Source: a virus
DNA: 64,000 nucleotides
Reading direction: 5' to 3' (one strand)
IMG/VR virus record: IMGVR_UViG_3300045988_037736
Span: 1-64,000 of that record
The notes under the pieces are model-generated. The model had not been told where the DNA came from. It saw only the letters and a list, made by a program, of their open reading frames with translations, and searched no databases. This document shows positions 1,251 to 11,711 of this stretch, in pieces (positions within the stretch are counted from its first letter, which is position 1; each line of letters starts with the position of its first letter). A program made the translations under genes and the position numbers.

Positions 1251-2432
1251 ATGGGAAAGTTAAAGAATGACATCCAAAGACTCCGAAACAGGAGACAAAG
1301 AGTTCTTGATGGGAAGTATAATTGCATTCCATTTCCTTTCCCAAGGTTTAGAAGGCTGTTTCCTGGATTGGAGCAAGAGAAGTTCCTGGTTGTGACTGCC
1401 AATCAGAAGATTGGTAAGAGCAAGTTTACTGATTATATATTGGTATATGAGCCTCTGTTCTTTTCTATGGAACATCCTGAACTTAAGGTAAAGATTCTTT
1501 ATTTCACCTTGGAGATGAGTCCTTCTGCAAAGAGAGATGAGTTCTATTGCCACCTGTTATATAGACTTGATGGCATAAGAATATCTCCTACTGATTTGAG
1601 AAGTACTGACCAAGAAAGACCTGTTGATGAAAAGATTCTTGAACTGCTTGAATCTGAGAGATATAGACCATACATTGAAAAGTTTGATGAAATGGTTGAG
1701 TTCATTGATGAAGATAAGAATCCTACTGGTATCAATAAAAGATGCAGAGATTATGCTTTATCTCATGGACATCTCAATTTCAAGGAGGTTGATGTTGTTG
1801 ACCCTCTTGATGATACAAAAGTCACCAAGAGGAGAGTGGTTGACTCTGACAATCCCTATACCCCAGATGACCCTGAGGAATATAGGATTGTCATAGTTGA
1901 CAATGCTTCAAACCTTGCACTTGAAAGTGGAATGAAGAAGATGGAGAACATTGATAAACTTGCTAAGTATGGTATAACCTTGAGAAATCAGCTCAAGTAT
2001 ATCTTTGTTCTCATACAGCATCAAGCACAAGCACAGGAAGGTGTTGAAAATCAGAAACTTAACAAGATTAAACCATCTTCTGATGGTCTTGCAGACTGTA
2101 AGACTACAACAAGAGATGCCAACTTTGTCCTTGGTCTTTACAGTCCTTATAAATATGGACTGAGAGAATATGAAGGTTATGACATAACAAAGTTTGGAAA
2201 CTTCATCAGGTTCATGGAAGTTATTGAGGATAGAGATTATGGTGCAAGCAACAACATATGTCCTTTGTTCTTTGATGGTGCAGCAAGTACTTTTGCAGAG
2301 CTTCCAAGAGCTGATGATAAGGAGGGACTTGAAAAAGTTTATGCTTACATTCAGACACTGAAACAACCAAAGAAGAAGGGTATTTCCTTCTTCATGAAAT
2401 CAATAAAATCATTATTTAACAAGAATGGCTAA
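1251..2432 (+). CDS. DnaB-like (SF4) replicative helicase RecA-type domain
   Basis: Walker A-like 'TANQKIGKSKF' is present. 'YFTLEMSPSAKRDEF' matches the DnaB H2 motif (FSLEMS). A Walker B-like 'IVIVDNASNL' is also present. The gene lies next to the primase. Confidence 0.5.
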   Translation: MGKLKNDIQRLRNRRQRVLDGKYNCIPFPFPRFRRLFPGLEQEKFLVVTANQKIGKSKFTDYILVYEPLFFSMEHPELKVKILYFTLEMSPSAKRDEFYCHLLYRLDGIRISPTDLRSTDQERPVDEKILELLESERYRPYIEKFDEMVEFIDEDKNPTGINKRCRDYALSHGHLNFKEVDVVDPLDDTKVTKRRVVDSDNPYTPDDPEEYRIVIVDNASNLALESGMKKMENIDKLAKYGITLRNQLKYIFVLIQHQAQAQEGVENQKLNKIKPSSDGLADCKTTTRDANFVLGLYSPYKYGLREYEGYDITKFGNFIRFMEVIEDRDYGASNNICPLFFDGAASTFAELPRADDKEGLEKVYAYIQTLKQPKKKGISFFMKSIKSLFNKNG

Positions 2433-3105
2433 CATTTGTCTCATTTTGGGCAAGACTGGCACTGGTAAATCTTCAAGTATCAGAGGTCTTGACCCTAAGG
2501 AAACAGTTATCTTCAATGTATTGAAGAAAAGGCTTCCTTTCAAAGGAAGTAAGTCTTTGTACAATGAAGAGAACAAGAACCTCTTTAATGTAGATGACTA
2601 TGCTACTATTGTAAATTACATGCAGGGAGTTGACAAGTCTGCTCCTCATGTAAGGAACATAGTTATTGAGGATGCTACCTACATCATGAGGAAAGAGTAT
2701 TTCAAGACTGCCAAAATCTCAGGCTTCAATAAGTTTGTAGACATGGCAGCACATTTCCAGAGCATTGTCAGCACTGCTGAGAACCTCAGGGATAACCTTA
2801 ATGTGTTTATCATCATGCACTGTGAGGAAATCTTCTCGGACAATACTATTGTCGGGTACAAGACTTCTACAGTGGGTAAGCTCATTGACAACAGCTATAA
2901 TCCTGCTGAGGTGGTTCCTATGACTTTATTCTCCTCTGTCAAGTATAATGATAAGGGAGAGGCAAGTTATGGATTCTATACACACAGATGTATGGAAGGT
3001 GGAGTTGAAATTCCTGCCAAGTCTCCTGCTGATATGTTTGAACAGGACTTCATCCCCAATGATTTGGGTCTTGTTGTAAGAGCAATGGATGAATATTATA
3101 ACTAA
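2425..3105 (+). CDS. P-loop ATPase, AAA_24/Sak4-like
   Basis: Walker A 'GKTGTGKS' lies at residues 9-16 and Walker B 'IVIEDATY' follows. Size (226 aa) and position next to helicase/primase are typical of phage AAA_24 ATPases. Confidence 0.45.
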   Translation: MANICLILGKTGTGKSSSIRGLDPKETVIFNVLKKRLPFKGSKSLYNEENKNLFNVDDYATIVNYMQGVDKSAPHVRNIVIEDATYIMRKEYFKTAKISGFNKFVDMAAHFQSIVSTAENLRDNLNVFIIMHCEEIFSDNTIVGYKTSTVGKLIDNSYNPAEVVPMTLFSSVKYNDKGEASYGFYTHRCMEGGVEIPAKSPADMFEQDFIPNDLGLVVRAMDEYYN

Positions 3106-4515: not shown

Positions 4516-5508
4516 ATGATAAGCTCAGGTGAACCCTTTGTATCTTTGGAAGATATATATAAGGTAACAACTGAAGCTGAAATAGCCCACTACTATTTAG
4601 GTGTGTCTAACATACCATGCAAGATAAACAGTCCATTGAGGTTAGACAGAAGTCCCTCATTTGGACTGTTTTCTCCTAATGGTAGCAGGATAACTTGGAT
4701 AGATTTCTCCTCTGGAGAGAGGGGAGGTATATTCGACCTGCTTGGAAAGATGTGGAACACTAGTTTTAAGGAGACTCTTGCAAGAATATATAAGGACTTC
4801 AATAAATTCAATGGAAGTGTTAAGATAGACTCCACAGGGCATTTGCCAATGGCACCTCGCATCAATGTAGGAAATAATGATGTTATAATGGAGTGCAAAG
4901 TTAGAGAGTGGAGGAAGCATGATATTGAATATTGGGAGTCTTATGGTATATCATTAGAGTGGCTTAAGTATGCTAATGTGCATCCTATATCTCACAAGAT
5001 AATAATCAAGAATGGTCAAAGATATGTCTTTGGAGCTGATAAGTATGCTTATGCTTATGCAGAGTTCAAGGATGGAAAAACCACTTTGAAGATTTACCAG
5101 CCATACAACAAGCAAGGATTCAAATGGAGCAACAAACATGATAGGTCTGTAATAAGCCTGTGGACAAAAGTGCCACCTACAGGGGATAGAGTATGTATAT
5201 GCTCTTCTCTAAAAGATGCACTATGTCTATGGTCTAATACAGGGATTCCTGCTTTGGCAATACAAGGTGAAGGATATACTATCAGTGATACTGCTGTTAG
5301 TGAATTGAAACGCAGATTCAAGAATGTCTATATCTTACTTGATAATGATGAGGCAGGACTGAAAGATGCTGAAATATTAGCTTCAAAAACTGGGTTCACT
5401 AACATAGTACTACCTAACATCAATGGTGCGAAAGATGTGTCAGACCTCTATCTTTCCCTCCAGGACAAAGAACAATTCCAAAAGATTATGATAGGTCTAT
5501 TTGATTAA
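4516..5508 (+). CDS. DnaG-type primase (TOPRIM domain)
   Basis: 'ILLDNDEAG' is the canonical TOPRIM DxDxxG motif. It is preceded by a conserved Glu-containing strand 'LAIQGEGY'. A possible zinc-binding N-terminus is present. Confidence 0.6.
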   Translation: MISSGEPFVSLEDIYKVTTEAEIAHYYLGVSNIPCKINSPLRLDRSPSFGLFSPNGSRITWIDFSSGERGGIFDLLGKMWNTSFKETLARIYKDFNKFNGSVKIDSTGHLPMAPRINVGNNDVIMECKVREWRKHDIEYWESYGISLEWLKYANVHPISHKIIIKNGQRYVFGADKYAYAYAEFKDGKTTLKIYQPYNKQGFKWSNKHDRSVISLWTKVPPTGDRVCICSSLKDALCLWSNTGIPALAIQGEGYTISDTAVSELKRRFKNVYILLDNDEAGLKDAEILASKTGFTNIVLPNINGAKDVSDLYLSLQDKEQFQKIMIGLFD

Positions 5509-5532: not shown

Positions 5533-6264
5533 ATGGAAGCAAGAAAAATTACAGTTGTTTCTACGAAAACTCAGAAAAAGAGTGTAATCATGTCAGGTGC
5601 CGAGACACTTGGCGAATTGAAGAAAGACCTCAATGAGGCAGGTATTGACTACGATGGTATGACCTTCTTTGAAGGCACCTCGAAGACTGAACTCAAGACA
5701 GATGAGTCTGTTCTTCCCAAGGATGTACCTTACACCAACAGAACTACAGGTGAAACTATAAACACTAATGAACTGGTGTTTATGCTCACCAATACCAACA
5801 AGAAAATCAGGTCAGGTGCTATGACTAGAACTGAGGCTTACAATACTATCAAGGCTCAGGGTCTTCAGGGTGCCTGTGTAGCTATGTATGGCAAAAACTT
5901 TACACAGTGCTCTACCAATGACCTTATCCTTCTCATTCAGAAGAAGGGCAAGAAAGCTGCTACTGCCCCTGTAAAGGAGCAGCCTGCACCTACAAAAGTT
6001 GAGACTGTAGCTACTACTCCTGCTACTCCCTCTGTTCCTGCACCTGTAGCAAAATGTGTTGATGTACAGGTAAGAGCTGCCATCACTGAACTTACAAGGG
6101 TTCTTTGTGAGGAGGGTACCATTGAGGAGGATACCAAAGATGAGGTTCTCAATATCCTTGGTGGGGGTGCTGTAGTTCCTACAGTATCTGACAATTATAA
6201 GCCTGATTCTGCCTCTCCCTACAGCGACAATGAGATTGATGCCATGTTCAGAGGTATGTGCTGA
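5533..6264 (+). CDS. hypothetical protein with Ala/Pro/Thr-rich linker
   Basis: 243-aa ORF. It contains the linker 'KKAATAPVKEQPAPTKVETVATTPATPSVPAPVAK' between two globular parts. Confidence 0.4.
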   Translation: MEARKITVVSTKTQKKSVIMSGAETLGELKKDLNEAGIDYDGMTFFEGTSKTELKTDESVLPKDVPYTNRTTGETINTNELVFMLTNTNKKIRSGAMTRTEAYNTIKAQGLQGACVAMYGKNFTQCSTNDLILLIQKKGKKAATAPVKEQPAPTKVETVATTPATPSVPAPVAKCVDVQVRAAITELTRVLCEEGTIEEDTKDEVLNILGGGAVVPTVSDNYKPDSASPYSDNEIDAMFRGMC

Positions 6265-7376
6265 TAGCACAGCCTATAGGCAATAACCCATGGGGAAGAG
6301 AGGAGCAATACCTTTCTTCCCCATTTTTTTTTGCATTTTATATGACAGAACATGACCCTATATCAATAGTCCACAGCATCTTTGCTGACTTCTTTGGTGA
6401 AGAGAATGTGGACTTGCAAGGACAGATTATCATAGTTCACTTCCCTAAAGTTACAGTGACTAATGAGCACAACCGAAGTGTTGATATAACCCACCTGTGG
6501 GTGAAAGTCAAAGTATCTCTTAACGGAACTATAGATGGCACATTTCAGATGATGAGGTCTGAGTTTACAGCAACTCAGTTTGCAAGTGGTTACAGCCATT
6601 CTCATATACCAAGCATTAGTAGAACTGGTCTTTCTTGGGCTAGTCCCTGTCTTGGTGATGGACCTATAAGGAGCACTATCACCTCTCTATCTACAGAGTT
6701 TTCTGAAGAGATGTGGAACTTATTTTGTCTTGAACTATCAAAGTATGTCACTGTAGAATCTCTCAGTGGAGGCCCTTATATACGTCTTGAAACTATAGGA
6801 ACTAGCAGGAGAAGTACTGAGGAAATTACATTCCCACTTGAACCTGCTATGGACGATATAAGACTTAGGGAGGATATAAAACAGAGCATAGCAGCTTTCA
6901 TTCCTGCGATACTTAGTAAGAAGCCTTTTGGGTTTAACTTCTTCAATGGAAGCTATGGTATTGCAATGTCTGAAAGAGACCTCTTTATCACTTTGAGCAA
7001 CTTGTTCATTGAATATTACAACTCCCTACCTGCTTCACAACAGACCCCAATAGAAGACCTATTTTCCGCAGGTATCTTGTGTAAAGGTAAACTTATTGGC
7101 AACAAATTGTACTATGTCTATGATGGTGACCCAAATGCAGTTACTAACCATAGAGATATGATAGGGAGAAATATGTTGAGGTTCAAGAATAGCACCATAA
7201 CTCTCAACATTACTAATGATTCAGTTGCAGAAGATGACCCTAATATGTCTATCTTCCTGTCGAAGATTGTAGTAAAGGCTATAATTGATAGAATTTTAAG
7301 AACAATAAATAACAAGTATGGACAACCAAGCAACCAAGAAGATGATTTCTCTGGAGAAGCACACAGATACTTATAA
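6258..7376 (+). CDS. hypothetical protein, possibly an E2/UBC-like partner of the downstream JAB/E1 pair
   Basis: 372-aa ORF translationally coupled to the JAB gene. The segment 'SHIPSISRTGLSWASPCLGDG' loosely resembles the E2 HPN...C-L active-site region. This is a weak similarity only. Confidence 0.3.
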   Translation: MLIAQPIGNNPWGREEQYLSSPFFFAFYMTEHDPISIVHSIFADFFGEENVDLQGQIIIVHFPKVTVTNEHNRSVDITHLWVKVKVSLNGTIDGTFQMMRSEFTATQFASGYSHSHIPSISRTGLSWASPCLGDGPIRSTITSLSTEFSEEMWNLFCLELSKYVTVESLSGGPYIRLETIGTSRRSTEEITFPLEPAMDDIRLREDIKQSIAAFIPAILSKKPFGFNFFNGSYGIAMSERDLFITLSNLFIEYYNSLPASQQTPIEDLFSAGILCKGKLIGNKLYYVYDGDPNAVTNHRDMIGRNMLRFKNSTITLNITNDSVAEDDPNMSIFLSKIVVKAIIDRILRTINNKYGQPSNQEDDFSGEAHRYL

Positions 7377-8487
7377 ATTAGTTATCCCTGCTGATGTAGA
7401 GAAGAAAATAAGACACCTTTGCAATAGGGTTTCACAGGTGGAGTGGTCTGGTACACTGTTCTACACGCATAGTGGCTCATACGAGGAGGGAACTCTTGAG
7501 ATAAGATGTGTGGACATATTCCCAATGGACATTGGTTCACAGGCATATACAGAGTTTGACATGTCTCCTGATGTAATAGCTTACATGACTGGCCATCCTG
7601 AACTGTTAGATTGCCAGATGGGACTTATACATAGCCATAATAATATGGCTACTTTCTTCAGTGGTACAGATACTGCCACCTTAAGGGAGGAGGGAAATGA
7701 TAGGAACCATTTTGTAAGCCTTATTGTAAATAATGCAGGAACCTATACTGCTGCTATTACAAGGAAACTCACAACCAAGAAGGTAATAAACTCTACTTAT
7801 ACTTATAAGACCTTTGAAGATGTTGAGAAGACAGGCACTAGAACTGTGGAAGTAGAGGAAGAGGTGATTGCATATAATTACCTCAATATCATCAAGGAGG
7901 GTGAGGTAACTGAACCCTTTCTTGAAATTGATGAAAGGCTGGAGGCAATCAAGAAGAATAAGGCTACAGCAGCTCCTACAAAAGCTCCATTGTCAACTAC
8001 TCCTTATCATAGTAGCCTTCCTTTCACTCCTCCCACATATCCCAAAGCTAAAGAAGTCAAGCCTGTACAACAGAGTACACTCTTTGATGAAGGGTTCATG
8101 GAAAGTGAACCACCAAGAGTAGTTTCTGCTGACCCTAATGAGATAGATATTACTATCCCAGCACCTGTAGTGAGAGCTACCACACTACAACTTATCACAG
8201 GTTCAATAGCTATTGCTGATGCAAGTAGAATTGACCCTGTGAAATGGTCAGGTCAGATGGTGGGTCTGTTTGACAAGAGATTTGATAAAGATGAATCTCT
8301 CTTTGCATTATGGGCTGAAACTATGGCAGAGTTTGTCTTAACTAACTTTGTACCAGATGAATATGCTCACTTTGAAGAGGAGTATATATCAGAACTGTGT
8401 CAAGCAGTCTATATGACTCTTGATAAGTTACCCAAGAATAAATATATTAAAGCAATTCAAGACGCATTAATTACATGGATGTTATAA
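7318..8487 (+). CDS. JAB/MPN (JAMM) metalloprotease domain protein
   Basis: The complete JAMM motif is present: upstream Glu 'EIRCVD', then 'HSHNNMATFFSGTD' (H-x-H-x7-S-x2-D). A ~250-aa C-terminal extension follows. The real start may be the internal ATG near 7342. Confidence 0.7.
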   Translation: MDNQATKKMISLEKHTDTYKLVIPADVEKKIRHLCNRVSQVEWSGTLFYTHSGSYEEGTLEIRCVDIFPMDIGSQAYTEFDMSPDVIAYMTGHPELLDCQMGLIHSHNNMATFFSGTDTATLREEGNDRNHFVSLIVNNAGTYTAAITRKLTTKKVINSTYTYKTFEDVEKTGTRTVEVEEEVIAYNYLNIIKEGEVTEPFLEIDERLEAIKKNKATAAPTKAPLSTTPYHSSLPFTPPTYPKAKEVKPVQQSTLFDEGFMESEPPRVVSADPNEIDITIPAPVVRATTLQLITGSIAIADASRIDPVKWSGQMVGLFDKRFDKDESLFALWAETMAEFVLTNFVPDEYAHFEEEYISELCQAVYMTLDKLPKNKYIKAIQDALITWML

Positions 8488-9314
8488 CAACAAATACCTT
8501 AGGATTATCTGAAGCAGAGGTTGCACTTCTTGAAGCAACTTTGGCACAGGCACATGAGGATAACAGGCAGATTCTGCCTCCTAATTCAGAATCACTCCTA
8601 ATAGATGAATCTTCTTCGAGATTCAGTTCTGCCATATGGTTTAAAGAAATAGGAAAGCGGATAGTAACTCTTGCTGGACTTGGAGGTATTGGCAGCTATG
8701 TTGCCTTCCTTCTTGGCAGACTTAAGGTAAACGAGATAATCATCTATGATGATGATACTGTAGATGAAACCAACCTATCAGGACAGATGTTCTCTAGAGA
8801 GGACATAGGACGTTCCAAGACAGTTGCAGTATGTCAGATGCTTAGGGACTATTCCACCTATTATAATATTATAAGTAGGAGTGAAAGGTTTACACATACC
8901 TCTCCTGCTACTAACATTATGATATGTGGCTTTGACAATATGTCGGCAAGAAAGACTTTCTATGAGAGATGGAGAAACTATGTTATGGGCAAACCTGAAG
9001 AAGAAAGAAGTAATTGTCTCTTTATTGATGGTAGGCTTGCAGCAGAGGAGTTCCAAGTATTTTGCATCAAAGGTACTGACAACTTCCTTATGAATAAATA
9101 TGAGGCAGAGTGGCTGTTCCAAGATGGTGAGGCAGAAGCAACACTATGTTCTTACAAACAGACAAGTTTCTGTGCCAATATGATTGCATCTGTTATGATA
9201 AATCTCTTTGTCAACTTCATAGCAAACAAATGTGAACCTCTCATTGAGAGGGAACTTCCTTTCTACACCAACTATGATGCAGAAAGGATGTACTTCAAAA
9301 CTGAAATGGTATGA
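8475..9314 (+). CDS. E1-like ThiF/MoeB-family adenylyltransferase
   Basis: Rossmann motif 'GLGGIGS'. 'DDDTVDETNLSGQ' matches the E1/MoeB DxDxVExSNLxRQ signature. 'FDNMSARK' matches the MoeB DN..AR motif. It overlaps the JAB gene by 13 nt. Confidence 0.7.
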   Translation: MDVITTNTLGLSEAEVALLEATLAQAHEDNRQILPPNSESLLIDESSSRFSSAIWFKEIGKRIVTLAGLGGIGSYVAFLLGRLKVNEIIIYDDDTVDETNLSGQMFSREDIGRSKTVAVCQMLRDYSTYYNIISRSERFTHTSPATNIMICGFDNMSARKTFYERWRNYVMGKPEEERSNCLFIDGRLAAEEFQVFCIKGTDNFLMNKYEAEWLFQDGEAEATLCSYKQTSFCANMIASVMINLFVNFIANKCEPLIERELPFYTNYDAERMYFKTEMV

Positions 9315-10069
9315 CAATCTCTTATGCACTTAGTAACAGTCTGAGAAGTAACACTTTTGGACCCTCTGATAGGTGGCACGACACTGTCAGTCCCCCTCCC
9401 AGCTATGAGAATAATGGAAGGTTCTCTAGATTTCTTGAGGTAATTGTTCCTTGTTCTGGAGAATGCTTTGTGCCTGTGCTAGGTATTTCAAATACCATAA
9501 GCTTTATAAAACACTGGCTTGATTCAGTATCTCCTACACGGCCAATAAAGCTCTCCTATCCTCTCTTCGTAGGTGGAAAGGGGGTGAGAAAAACAGCAGA
9601 CTCTATCATACAATCTATTAACAACTGCCCTGAGGACCTGAGGCTTAGTAATATTATTACTTCAAAAGGTCTTGACTATTATGGGGGACAAGGGCTTATC
9701 TTTGATGAGAACTGGAATCCTCTTATGCTCTGTGGGTACATCATTAACATTGATAGGATTAACAAAGTTATACGGATTGTAAAGCCTGTATGCCATGTTT
9801 CTCCTGATGTCATTGAGAATAAGGATATTCTGTCAAAGGCTATCATAAAGAAAGTTGTTCCCTTTATAAGCACTAGAGGCGCAGATGTTCCAGTCCTTTT
9901 TAGGAGAAGCCACTGTGTCACTTTCAACTCTGAGAGCTTTCAGTGTATCCCTGTGACAATATGTTGCTTGAATGACTTCTTTGTTACTCCTAAAGCACCT
10001 AGGTTCATAGAACATCTTGATGATGCTATATGGGGCTTTCTTGAAGAGCATGTAAATGACTTAATATGA
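9311..10069 (+). CDS. hypothetical protein (coupled to E1-like gene and UDG)
   Basis: 252-aa ORF with 4-nt overlaps on both sides. It is Cys-rich. Confidence 0.4.
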   Translation: MTISYALSNSLRSNTFGPSDRWHDTVSPPPSYENNGRFSRFLEVIVPCSGECFVPVLGISNTISFIKHWLDSVSPTRPIKLSYPLFVGGKGVRKTADSIIQSINNCPEDLRLSNIITSKGLDYYGGQGLIFDENWNPLMLCGYIINIDRINKVIRIVKPVCHVSPDVIENKDILSKAIIKKVVPFISTRGADVPVLFRRSHCVTFNSESFQCIPVTICCLNDFFVTPKAPRFIEHLDDAIWGFLEEHVNDLI

Positions 10070-10809
10070 CAGCAGAGGAATACTTTGGAAGATGGATGAG
10101 AGTCATTGATATGAATGAGATGGCAAAGGTTCTCAATACACTCAGGAGTGTAAATCCTGACAGGTTATGCCCTGAATACCCAAATATATTCAAGGCATTT
10201 GAACTGTGCAGGTATGATGACTGTAAGGTAGTCTTCCTAGGTCAAGACCCCTATCCTCAGAAAGGTGTTGCTACAGGTATATTGTTTGGTAATAAACTTG
10301 GAACAAAGGAGCTTTCTCCTTCACTTGAAATTATCAAGGAGGGTTGTGTAAATTATGAGATACCTCATGGCCCTATAGAGTTTGATATAACTCTTGAATC
10401 ATGGGCTAAGCAGGGTATTCTTATGATAAATTCAGCTCTAACTTGTGAGGTAGGAAAGGTAAACTCTCATGTTAACTTATGGAGGCCCTTCATCTCTAAA
10501 CTGCTAAAGAACCTTTCAGAGCATGAGACAGGAATAATTTATGTTCTGTTTGGTTCTCAAGCAAAGACTTTCAAACCTTATATCAATAAGAACTATAATG
10601 ACATAATTGAAGTAGAGCATCCTGCATACTTTGCAAGGACTGGTCAGATTATGCCATACAGTGTCTTTACTGATATAAATAAACTCTTAAAAGGTAAATA
10701 TGGTACTACTATTGAGTGGTATCATGAATTAAATAACATAAATACAAACGACAATGAAAGAAAAGAAACAACTGATGGTGATGACTTCTTTTGGCCCTGT
10801 TCCCTTTGA
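10066..10809 (+). CDS. ung: uracil-DNA glycosylase (family 1 UNG-like)
   Basis: 'VVFLGQDPYPQKGVATGILFG' matches the UNG water-activating motif GQDPYH. It sits in the replication module. Confidence 0.65.
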   Translation: MTAEEYFGRWMRVIDMNEMAKVLNTLRSVNPDRLCPEYPNIFKAFELCRYDDCKVVFLGQDPYPQKGVATGILFGNKLGTKELSPSLEIIKEGCVNYEIPHGPIEFDITLESWAKQGILMINSALTCEVGKVNSHVNLWRPFISKLLKNLSEHETGIIYVLFGSQAKTFKPYINKNYNDIIEVEHPAYFARTGQIMPYSVFTDINKLLKGKYGTTIEWYHELNNINTNDNERKETTDGDDFFWPCSL

Positions 10810-11248
10810 TGCAGTAAGGGAGCACCTTCCCAAAGAGATTGTTGAAGTGATTGACTCAACTAAGGATGAGATTCTTACAGCCATAGAGAGTGCTGTCCCT
10901 GTGTGTGTGGATTACTACATTGCAAGTCTCGCACAGAAAGCAGGGTGGAAACCTGAAAAGATGGCAGGCTACCTCACCAATCTCTACAACATCAATCCTG
11001 CTCTTGCATTCTCTATGCTCCTCAGAGAGGTGGCCATTGAGCTTGACAAGAAGTATGAGGACCACATCAACAACTGTAAGGAACTCTACATTATTTCTTT
11101 AATGGATGGCAGGATTCACAAGGTGCCCAGAGCTTATATCAAGAACTTCAGGAACTTTGCAGCTTTCAGAACTGAGGAAGATGCAAAGACTGCCTGTAGG
11201 ATTCTCAGAAGTGAACTTAAGGAGATGTTCAAAAGTGGCAGAAAATAA
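10754..11248 (+). CDS. hypothetical protein
   Basis: 164-aa ORF. Confidence 0.4.
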   Translation: MKEKKQLMVMTSFGPVPFDAVREHLPKEIVEVIDSTKDEILTAIESAVPVCVDYYIASLAQKAGWKPEKMAGYLTNLYNINPALAFSMLLREVAIELDKKYEDHINNCKELYIISLMDGRIHKVPRAYIKNFRNFAAFRTEEDAKTACRILRSELKEMFKSGRK

Positions 11249-11711
11249 GAAGATTAGAAATGCTAGAGAGTCAGTCTTCAATGGTATAACTTTCAAGTCC
11301 AAACTAGAGGAAAACTTCTACAAAACACTTGTGTCAGCAGGTCTGGCACCTGACTATGAACTTGCTAAGTTTGTACTGGTCGAGGGATTTAAGCCCACAG
11401 TACCATTCTACAACAGAAGTAAGTCAAAGGTGTTCAAGATGGATATGAATAAAGTCAGGGATATTACCTATACCCCTGACTTTACCATTCTCTATAATGG
11501 TACTTTATTCATCATAGAAGCAAAGGGTATAGAGAATGATACCTTCCCTCTTAAGAAGAAGCTCTTCAGAAGGTTCCTTGAATCTATGGAGATGCCCTGT
11601 GTGTACTTTGAAGTTCATACCAAGAGAGAGCTACTTGAAGTAATAAACATAATCAAATCTTATGGAACAGCCACTGGACAAAATCAGAAGACTCTCAAAG
11701 AGTTTACCTGA
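11187..11711 (+). CDS. PD-(D/E)xK-type nuclease-like protein
   Basis: 'TPDFTILYNGTLFIIEAKG' fits the D...(E)xK catalytic core. The ORF track starts at 11106 inside the upstream gene, so a downstream start near 11187 is more likely. Confidence 0.4.
   Translation, partial: RLPVGFSEVNLRRCSKVAENKKIRNARESVFNGITFKSKLEENFYKTLVSAGLAPDYELAKFVLVEGFKPTVPFYNRSKSKVFKMDMNKVRDITYTPDFTILYNGTLFIIEAKGIENDTFPLKKKLFRRFLESMEMPCVYFEVHTKRELLEVINIIKSYGTATGQNQKTLKEFT

Follow-up and report, generated by a model that had tools for sequence, protein, structure and literature searches.

A candidate ubiquitin-like conjugation cassette in the replication module of a crAss-like gut phage

The cassette and its genes

The 64,000-nucleotide stretch of viral DNA considered here (the window; positions 1 to 64,000 of IMG/VR record IMGVR_UViG_3300045988_037736) carries, in region 5533-10069 of its plus strand and inside the replication module of a crAss-like gut phage, a cassette of five genes. 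They encode a ubiquitin-like (Ubl) precursor named UblX, a probably E2-like protein (ORF1), a JAMM/MPN+ metallopeptidase (here JAB), an E1-like adenylyltransferase (here E1), and a fifth protein, ORF4. The features of the cassette are the following:

5533..6264, plus strand: UblX, ubiquitin-like precursor of 243 amino acids
6290..6334, plus strand: terminator-like hairpin followed by T8, between the Ubl gene and the enzyme genes
6342..7376, plus strand: ORF1, probable E2-like protein of 344 amino acids from ATG 6342
7318..8487, plus strand: JAMM/MPN+ metallopeptidase of 389 amino acids
8475..9314, plus strand: ThiF/MoeB-type E1-like adenylyltransferase of 279 amino acids
9311..10069, plus strand: ORF4, 252 amino acids, fifth, translationally coupled gene

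All four open reading frames (ORFs) listed in an earlier note on this DNA (6258-7376, 7318-8487, 8475-9314, and 9311-10069) are present, and the overlaps between consecutive genes, which amount to 59 nucleotides (nt) for ORF1/JAB, 13 nt for JAB/E1, 4 nt for E1/ORF4, and 4 nt for ORF4 and the uracil-DNA glycosylase (UDG) gene that follows, confirm tight translational coupling across the cassette. The picture drawn in that note, of a crAss-like phage whose replication module holds a JAMM peptidase and an E1-like adenylyltransferase that share transcription and are linked by translational coupling, is upheld. The ORF1/JAB overlap (7318-7376) is out of frame, with both frames conserved as protein, and is unusual in comparison with the 4-nt overlaps elsewhere. 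It is kept in relatives, at 59 nt in locus L003, ~62-68 nt in Bacteroides phage crAss001, and 125 nt in Flavobacterium phage Fpv3, and might reflect coupling or a programmed frameshift fusion.

The tag precursor UblX

The earlier note had reported no obvious ubiquitin-like partner, and wrongly so, since the partner is the N-terminal domain of the ORF at 5533-6264, just 5' of the interval that it reported. Residues 1-95 of UblX (5533-5817) constitute a beta-grasp Ubl domain with a flexible tail, NKKIRSG, that ends at the invariant Gly95 (codon 5815-5817); a beta-grasp fold and a flexible tail closed by a conserved Gly are the hallmarks of Ubl modifiers. The family is large, with 6,497 homologues detected, and its N-terminal 95 residues are very conserved. 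The consensus of the tail is K-x-x-[KR]-S-G, where Ser94 is nearly invariant and Gly95 is invariant in 42 sequences, down to 20% identity; the linker that comes next varies in both length and sequence. In Fpv3, the tail reads KSGG. The sequence LNILGGG near the C-terminus of UblX was also considered as a diglycine end and rejected, as it is not conserved (ILEG, ILSS, and VLKG in homologues).

Residues 96-243 form a C-terminal module in which a conserved three-helix domain (99-139) is followed by a disordered linker rich in A, P, T, and K, by two helices, and by an acidic tail whose last residue is aromatic (...DNEIDAMFRGMC). Because this half adjoins the primase and possesses an acidic, aromatic-ended tail, it may, once released, be a replisome-associated factor.

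L064 (96 kb) and L070 (98 kb), two phage contigs that are nearly complete, have a UblX gene that is interrupted two codons 3' of the Gly codon. There, a 91-amino-acid Ubl ORF ending ...NKKIKSGKF* is followed by a gene for an HNH homing endonuclease, intact in L064 and decayed in L070, and then by a separate ORF for the C-terminal part, which starts MNTNNMTRTEAY... Tag and C-terminal module can therefore occur as two distinct polypeptides, and the split between them coincides exactly with the predicted cleavage site. A group I intron was discarded as the cause of the split, since no Rfam match was found at E <= 1. HNH genes (NUMOD4 plus HNH_3) have invaded the cassette at two points (L064 2213-3426 and L070 2437-3366; L011 2585-3124): inside the UblX gene after K-S-G in L064 and L070, and between the Ubl gene and ORF1 in L011 and, apparently, in L034 too.

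The JAMM peptidase

The intact JAMM motif that had been reported in 7318..8487 is confirmed. It consists of E42 (7441-7443) and HSHNNMATFFSGTD (7630-7671), that is, H105-S-H107-x7-S115-x2-D118, and thus comprises the complete catalytic motif of JAMM/MPN+ enzymes. E42, H105, S106, H107, S115, and D118 are invariant in 13 JAB homologues that share 27-86% identity and include Fpv3. The Pfam Prok-JAB model is matched weakly, below its gathering score, by all 13 family members (best E 1e-4), and the family profile finds JAMM1, RPN11, and CSN5 in PDB at E 0.03-0.16; a search of PDB with the single sequence gave no match. The catalytic domain occupies residues ~20-160 and is followed by a low-complexity linker and a conserved C-terminal domain (~285-389). 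Residues ~168-240 (7820-8040), a charged helical or linker segment, weakly resemble the basic helix at the C-terminus of ribosomal protein eL24 in a profile search (E 0.0016), a match that is probably compositional.

The probable E2-like protein ORF1

The 372-amino-acid ORF proposed upstream of the peptidase does exist, but its GTG start at 6258 is unlikely: the start of ORF1 is most likely ATG 6342, because most homologues start there and the 84 nt upstream hold the terminator-like hairpin. The 'H-I-P...C-L' segment noticed previously is real and lies within a family signature, Y-x-H-S-H...P-C-x-G-x-G-P-I, in which S87, H88, C103, G105, G107, and P108 are found in 245/245 sequences, Y84 in 244, and H86 in 243; I109 is invariant in a 32-sequence alignment (A1). 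The family is represented by ~2,900 clusters at 50% identity in public data.

In the AlphaFold2 model built from a 32-sequence alignment (predicted local distance difference test 83.5), the N-terminal domain of ORF1 (~1-135) appears to have a UBC/RWD-like topology, and H86-S-H88 and the candidate catalytic Cys103 (codon 6648-6650) are placed between strand 74-76 and helix 108-118, in the loop that precedes helix 2. In this, the modelled protein would match what is expected of an E2, where the Cys sits in a loop that follows strand 4 and comes after a conserved motif with His. Residues ~157-322 form one or more extra alpha/beta domains. No match to E2 families (UQ_con, Prok-E2) was obtained for ORF1 with Pfam, NCBIfam, PADLOC, PDB profiles, or Foldseek against PDB; HHalign with UBE2D2 gave a probability of 0.8%, and an exhaustive profile search returned no distant annotated relatives among the best 150 matches, all of which were strong, full-length members of the same family. 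Hence, the E2-like character suggested in the earlier note agrees with the predicted fold and the invariant Cys and finds no support in sequence similarity, so that ORF1 is a probable, not an established, E2-like protein.

The E1-like adenylyltransferase

The ThiF/MoeB/E1 signatures announced for 8475..9314 are present, as LAGLGGIGS and DDDTVDETNLSGQ, with the nucleotide loop GLGGIGS lying within 8670-8696. The protein belongs to the ThiF superfamily, as it matches Pfam ThiF (PF00899) over residues 59-272 with an E value of 5.2e-17 and 62.2 bits against a cutoff of 28.1. The invariant residues are G68, G70, D92-x-D94, K115, D154-N155, R159, and Cys225, the latter (9147-9149) located in the region equivalent to the crossover loop.

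Below the superfamily level, all matches to named subfamilies are partial or far below the curated cutoffs. The NCBIfam models PRK08644, TIGR02354, TIGR02356, and PRK05690 score 60.9, 48.8, 38.2, and 26.7 bits against cutoffs of 159, 152, 275, and 266, respectively, so that the protein falls short of every equivalog, and these ThiF/MoeB matches are confined to the Rossmann part. With PADLOC, the best matches are the Cap2-type E1-E2 (3.8e-12) and BilD (1.4e-9), covering only ~95 residues; in PDB, they are MccB (1.4e-8), NEDD8 E1 (1.2e-5), ThiF (5.5e-5), and UBA5 (1.2e-4). The enzyme represents a distinct minimal single-domain E1 family (phrog_15670). Its N-terminal extension (8475-8650) ranges from 0 to ~110 residues by lineage, the whole protein having 383 amino acids in crAss001 Gp76, 279 here, and 228 in Fpv3 (alignment A7). 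Immediately N-terminal to the Rossmann fold, the crAss-type proteins and Fpv3 share a conserved helix, 'S-R-F-S-x-A-x-W', which is not kept in a jumbo-phage homologue and which could correspond to the Arg-finger helix of ThiF/MoeB-type dimers.

Given a minimal, ThiF-like E1 and the existence of sulfur carriers trimmed by JAMM enzymes, the main alternative to protein conjugation is that UblX is a carrier of the ThiS/MoaD/CysO/QbsE type, trimmed by the JAMM enzyme and adenylated and thiocarboxylated by the E1, which would deliver sulfur to a small molecule or to a modification of nucleic acid formed during replication, with no protein being tagged. The finding that the earlier note had named as contradicting its proposal, placement of the E1 with ThiF/MoeB enzymes beside a sulfur-carrier gene, is formally approached, since ThiF is the best NCBIfam match and the neighbouring gene encodes a beta-grasp protein. 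The ThiF/MoeB scores, however, lie far under the family cutoffs (61 versus 159 bits for the best), and the cluster yielded no domain for sulfur transfer: the E1 lacks a rhodanese domain, and neither rhodanese, cysteine desulfurase, ThiG/ThiH, MoaE, nor other sulfur-acceptor domains were found in the five proteins or the flanking genes. Moreover, the known sulfur-carrier pathways offer no role for a UBC-like protein that carries an invariant Cys, and the carrier would be fused to a conserved 150-amino-acid module. A sulfur-carrier function is thus considered unlikely.

It could also be that the cassette serves maturation only or another E1 chemistry, with the JAMM enzyme freeing a replication factor from a ubiquitin-fold chaperone, the E1 performing, for example, an MccB-like nucleotidylation of a C-terminus, and ORF1 acting as a non-catalytic RWD/UEV adaptor. 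Nevertheless, it would be difficult to understand why a non-catalytic adaptor should keep Cys103 in 245/245 ORF1 sequences, together with H86 and H88. The E1 likewise has an invariant Cys225, and the four genes stay linked in phages that are very divergent, which suggests one pathway; this explanation seems rather improbable.

ORF4

ORF4 lies directly 3' of the E1 gene in all complete crAss-type loci. Its alignment (A6) contains only a small number of invariant residues (G128, P165, V167, K176, P227, and P230) and a near-invariant YYGG motif. No match was found in Pfam, NCBIfam, PHROG, PADLOC, or PDB with the single sequence or the profile, and the ORF4 hidden Markov model (HMM) matched neither Fpv3 gp51 nor the Puia locus described below. 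As it has no invariant Cys or His, ORF4 is not a RING-type E3, and it is a candidate adaptor, E3-like factor, or substrate.

The hairpin between tag and enzyme genes

The hairpin at 6290-6334 is made up of a 14-bp stem, a 7-nt loop, and T8. A stable hairpin with a run of at least six T no more than 130 nt from the UblX stop is found in 74/76 related loci, with 30 different stem sequences among them, so that its position is conserved and its sequence is not; it is also present in crAss001 and Fpv3, and further examples are L001 5477-5539 and L082 3521-3593. This conservation of position suggests conserved partial termination, by which the tag precursor would outnumber the enzymes, and the stoichiometry of tag to enzymes could be set at this putative terminator.

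Conservation and distribution

Relatives of the E1 are encoded by 265 IMG/VR stretches, of which 80 were kept and, together with crAss001, used for the comparison of loci. The order UblX, ORF1, JAB, E1, ORF4 is found in 77/77 loci with long enough flanks. The closest cultured relative, Bacteroides phage crAss001 (Crassvirales, Steigviridae), has an identical gene order from Gp79 to Gp74, where a function is annotated only for Gp77 ('metalloprotease domain') and Gp76 ('thiamine biosynthesis protein, ThiF'). In Fpv3 (Fipvunavirus), primase and UDG are followed by the four-gene core at 26-34% identity, with a non-homologous gene at the place of ORF4. The cassette is carried by cultured phage-host pairs, namely crAss001 with Bacteroides intestinalis, DAC15 and DAC17 with B. 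thetaiotaomicron, and FpV4 with Flavobacterium psychrophilum; no p-crAssphage-type genome appears among the 60 of 87 tblastn matches listed.

The 11 matches to bacterial 'genomes' are all contigs of metagenome-assembled genomes (MAGs). Four were checked with the cassette HMMs, which found UblX, JAB, and E1 in 4/4 and ORF1 in 3/4, and the two longest show a phage replication context, with a primase 5' in L094 and UDG or a PD-(D/E)XK nuclease 3'. These two contigs, L092 (640 kb, 'Bacilli bacterium' MAG) and L094 (374 kb, Puia sp. MAG), carry the full cassette and could be prophages, very large phages, or chimeric assemblies; the neighbours of the cassette in L092 include large Big_2/amidase proteins.

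In jumbo phages of ~227 kb (Xanthomonas PhiXhv, Erwinia Ep032), an E1 homologue with 30% identity adjoins topoisomerase genes; in Xanthomonas phage PhiXhv-12 (L083, 2241-6491), it is preceded by an 892-amino-acid ORF and followed by ORFs of 70 and 243 amino acids. The PhiXhv-12 locus is not the same cassette, as cassette HMMs and Pfam found no Ubl, E2, or JAB among the neighbours, and its E1 may belong to a different E1-based system in a replication context.

Genomic context and the question of defence

The cassette is flanked in the window by the following genes:

2425-3105, plus strand: AAA_24 ATPase, followed by two ORFs of no assigned function before the primase
4516-5508, plus strand: Toprim primase, directly 5' of the cassette
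10066-10809, plus strand: UDG, 3' of ORF4
successively 3' of UDG, plus strand: DUF1064 endonuclease, PD-(D/E)XK exonuclease, and anaerobic ribonucleotide reductase

In the relatives examined, the cassette is always beside genes for primase, UDG, and PD-(D/E)XK nuclease. Coding is assigned to the plus strand because it is supported by the GC skew, which is positive up to ~36 kb across the plus-strand gene array holding the cassette, and because minus-strand ORFs are short and nested within plus-strand genes. Near window position ~36000, the signs of GC skew and AT skew flip, consistent with a switch of the coding strand between two divergent or convergent blocks of genes. The DUF1064/endonuclease ORF overlaps the preceding ORF by 143 nt (window 10754-11248 and 11106-11711); as its crAss001 orthologue, Gp72, has only 135 amino acids, the true start is probably further downstream.

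This setting bears on the counter-defence role put forward in the earlier note, according to which the JAB would strip the tags of host Bil or type II CBASS systems from phage proteins or cGAS-like enzymes, or the E1, E2-like, and Ubl proteins would act as decoys. A phage deconjugase would be useful because Bil tags a phage tail protein, according to a preprint (10.1101/2023.09.04.556158), and the defence-related matches of the E1 are indeed the Cap2-type E1-E2 and BilD models of PADLOC. Yet deconjugation needs the peptidase alone, and the phage keeps tag, E1, and E2-like genes of its own; the cassette has a fixed place in the replication module and has been inherited across Steigviridae and Fipvunavirus, which looks more like a core function of the phage than like an accessory gene against defence; the JAB reaches only E 0.015 with the PADLOC JAB model; and neither the tag nor ORF1 showed a detectable resemblance to Bil components of the host. 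Counter-defence thus gains no support and is very unlikely, and the other suggestion of the same note, modification of a replication protein, would seem to fit the context better.

A phage-borne defence, in which a Bil-like system would exclude competing phages by tagging their virion proteins, appears even less probable. Phages are known to carry defence systems, and gene order and component set are the same as in BilABCD. However, defence cargo is usually variable and located in accessory hot spots, whereas these genes are core and syntenic and, in all the relatives examined, lie embedded between those for primase and UDG. In addition, the E1 is built differently from BilD, and PADLOC recognises only a partial E1 match. 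Both defence-related explanations fit poorly because the cassette is core, fixed in position, and self-sufficient.

A predicted ubiquitin-type pathway

Since the components, their order, coupling, and co-inheritance fit one ubiquitin-type pathway, region 5533-10069 is, on balance, probably one self-contained phage Ubl conjugation cassette, vertically inherited as part of the replication-module core in Steigviridae-type crAss-like phages and Fipvunavirus phages. This reading builds on what the sequences show: which domains are present, that residues of catalytic type are invariant, how the genes are ordered and coupled, how they are conserved, and that the UblX gene is naturally split where cleavage is predicted.

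Several features weigh against it. The E1 is of the minimal ThiF/MoeB type, without the CYS domain of BilD or an E2-recruiting ubiquitin-fold domain (UFD), and its best family matches are sulfur-carrier E1s in NCBIfam and MccB in PDB. The JAB scores 19.4 bits with Prok-JAB (PF14464), below the gathering threshold of 25. The tag ends in Ser-Gly, not Gly-Gly, and the ~150-amino-acid C-terminal extension of UblX, with its conserved folded domain, is far longer than those of known Bil precursors, so that the beta-grasp could be merely a permanent domain of a replication protein. In addition, neither an E3 nor a target was identified.

In the pathway that we infer, which comprises cleavage, thioester relay, conjugation, and the nature of the target, UblX would be made in excess through a leaky terminator between its gene and the enzyme genes. 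The JAMM peptidase would then cut the precursor after Gly95, yielding a 95-residue tag with a free ...K-I-R-S-G end and, by the same cut, a C-terminal helical/acidic-tail protein that is perhaps replisome-associated. The ThiF-type E1, presumably a homodimer, would adenylate Gly95, possibly with formation of a thioester on Cys225, and the tag would move to Cys103 of the E2-like ORF1, whose extra C-terminal domains and/or ORF4 could select the target. Finally, the tag would be joined to one or more lysines of phage or host proteins in the replication phase, an attachment that the same JAMM enzyme may be able to reverse. It seems possible rather than probable that Steigviridae, a major lineage among crAss-like phages, and related Bacteroidota phages have a complete Ubl pathway of their own, made up of a tag precursor fused to a replisome-associated factor, a JAMM protease, a minimal E1, and an E2 that has diverged strongly, and that this pathway is essential to replication and tags phage or host proteins.

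If the cassette conjugates proteins, it would add a new level to the control that phages exert over replication or the host, its minimal E1 and divergent E2 would be a pair in which to study the origin of E1-E2 cascades from ThiF-type enzymes, and five genes labelled 'hypothetical', 'thiamine biosynthesis', or 'metalloprotease' in every crAss001-like genome would acquire a meaning. The cassette is conserved as a core module in a phage group that ranks among the most abundant in the human gut, and it is testable in cultured phage-host pairs.

Comparison with known systems

No description of the cassette in crAss-like or Flavobacterium phages was found in the full-text literature, subscription papers lying outside the search. 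A 2026 preprint mentions a protein family of the gut virome that resembles UBA5 and might be a phage counterpart of bacterial ubiquitination proteins; it may or may not be the family found here.

The comparison with bacterial Ubl conjugation systems made in the earlier note is apt, and the genes follow the order of BilABCD. In BilABCD, a Ubl, an E2, a JAB deubiquitinase (DUB), and an E1 are encoded in one operon (PMC10557695), and the cassette has the same four component types in the same order. In type II BilA, the conserved Gly is followed by up to 9 residues that are removed by the JAB enzyme BilC (PMC10557695); in UblX, the Gly likewise is not at the very C-terminus and would have to be exposed by the JAB, and the stand-alone Ubl form of L064 and L070, with its conserved Gly plus two residues, resembles type II BilA. 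Nevertheless, the extension of the cassette precursor has ~150 amino acids and its own folded domain compared with 9 residues at most, and there is an extra fifth gene. The E1, with 279 amino acids and one adenylation domain, does not have the IAD/AAD/CYS architecture of BilD, whose model it matches only over positions 213-317 of 453, and UblX and ORF1 gave no match with the BilA and BilB models of PADLOC. Moreover, the cassette is located in the replication module of a lytic-type phage, not in a bacterial defence island, and all of its occurrences are in phage genomes or phage-like contexts, so that it does not appear to be an anti-phage defence encoded by bacteria. Thus, the cassette is predicted to work like Bil but, to judge from its E1 architecture, its E2 and Ubl families, and its being phage-encoded, falls outside that system.

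As with Cap2 and Cap3 of type II CBASS, E1 and E2 chemistry would be combined with a JAMM antagonist, and the best PADLOC matches of the E1 are of Cap2 type. In the cassette, however, E1 and E2 are separate proteins and the tag is a dedicated ubiquitin fold, whereas what Cap2 conjugates is the CD-NTase itself; near the cassette, no gene for a CD-NTase or an effector was found. The PRTRC cassette, the function of which is not known (PMC3318190), is also a cassette of mobile elements with a small ThiF-type E1 near DNA-maintenance genes. Membership in PRTRC is ruled out, as the E1 reaches 38.3 bits with TIGR03736 (PRTRC_ThiF, E 8.9e-10) against a cutoff of 144.75, the other four cassette proteins match no PRTRC model at E <= 0.1, and there is no ParB.

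Among phage proteins, TAPI of lambda and T1 has a Ubl domain with a conserved C-terminal Gly, a linker, and a second domain, and is predicted to be cut by the neighbouring JAB protein TAPK (PMC1779556). UblX shares with it a phage Ubl whose Gly is fused through a linker to another domain, with a JAB peptidase nearby. Nonetheless, TAPI and TAPK (JAB plus NlpC/P60) belong to a tail module without E1 or E2, whereas the cassette lies in the replication module together with an E1 and an E2-like protein. The ThiS/ThiF, MoaD/MoeB, CysO/Mec, and QbsE/QbsD systems resemble the cassette in having a minimal E1, a Gly-ended beta-grasp partner and, sometimes, JAMM trimming, but the cassette lacks sulfur-transfer partners and combines an E2-like invariant Cys with a Ser-Gly tag on a large C-terminal module. 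In eukaryotes, the tag is an N-terminal fusion to a functional protein in Ub-eS31 and Ub-eL40, from which it is released by deubiquitinases, and the arrangement of tag and C-terminal module in UblX would recall these fusions of ubiquitin and ribosomal proteins.

Bacterial Ubl conjugation has so far been shown as anti-phage immunity, in Bil and type II CBASS, and the same logic appears here on the side of the phage; if so, such cascades may circulate between phages and bacterial defence systems. The Asgard virus Nidhogg is reported to carry E1 homologues only, and E1-like proteins of archaeal viruses are thought to exploit the ubiquitin systems of the host (10.1101/2021.07.29.454249). In contrast, the crAss-like phage itself would encode every step, and its cassette would then represent the first case, among prokaryotic viruses, of a complete Ubl-E1-E2-DUB cascade encoded by the virus.

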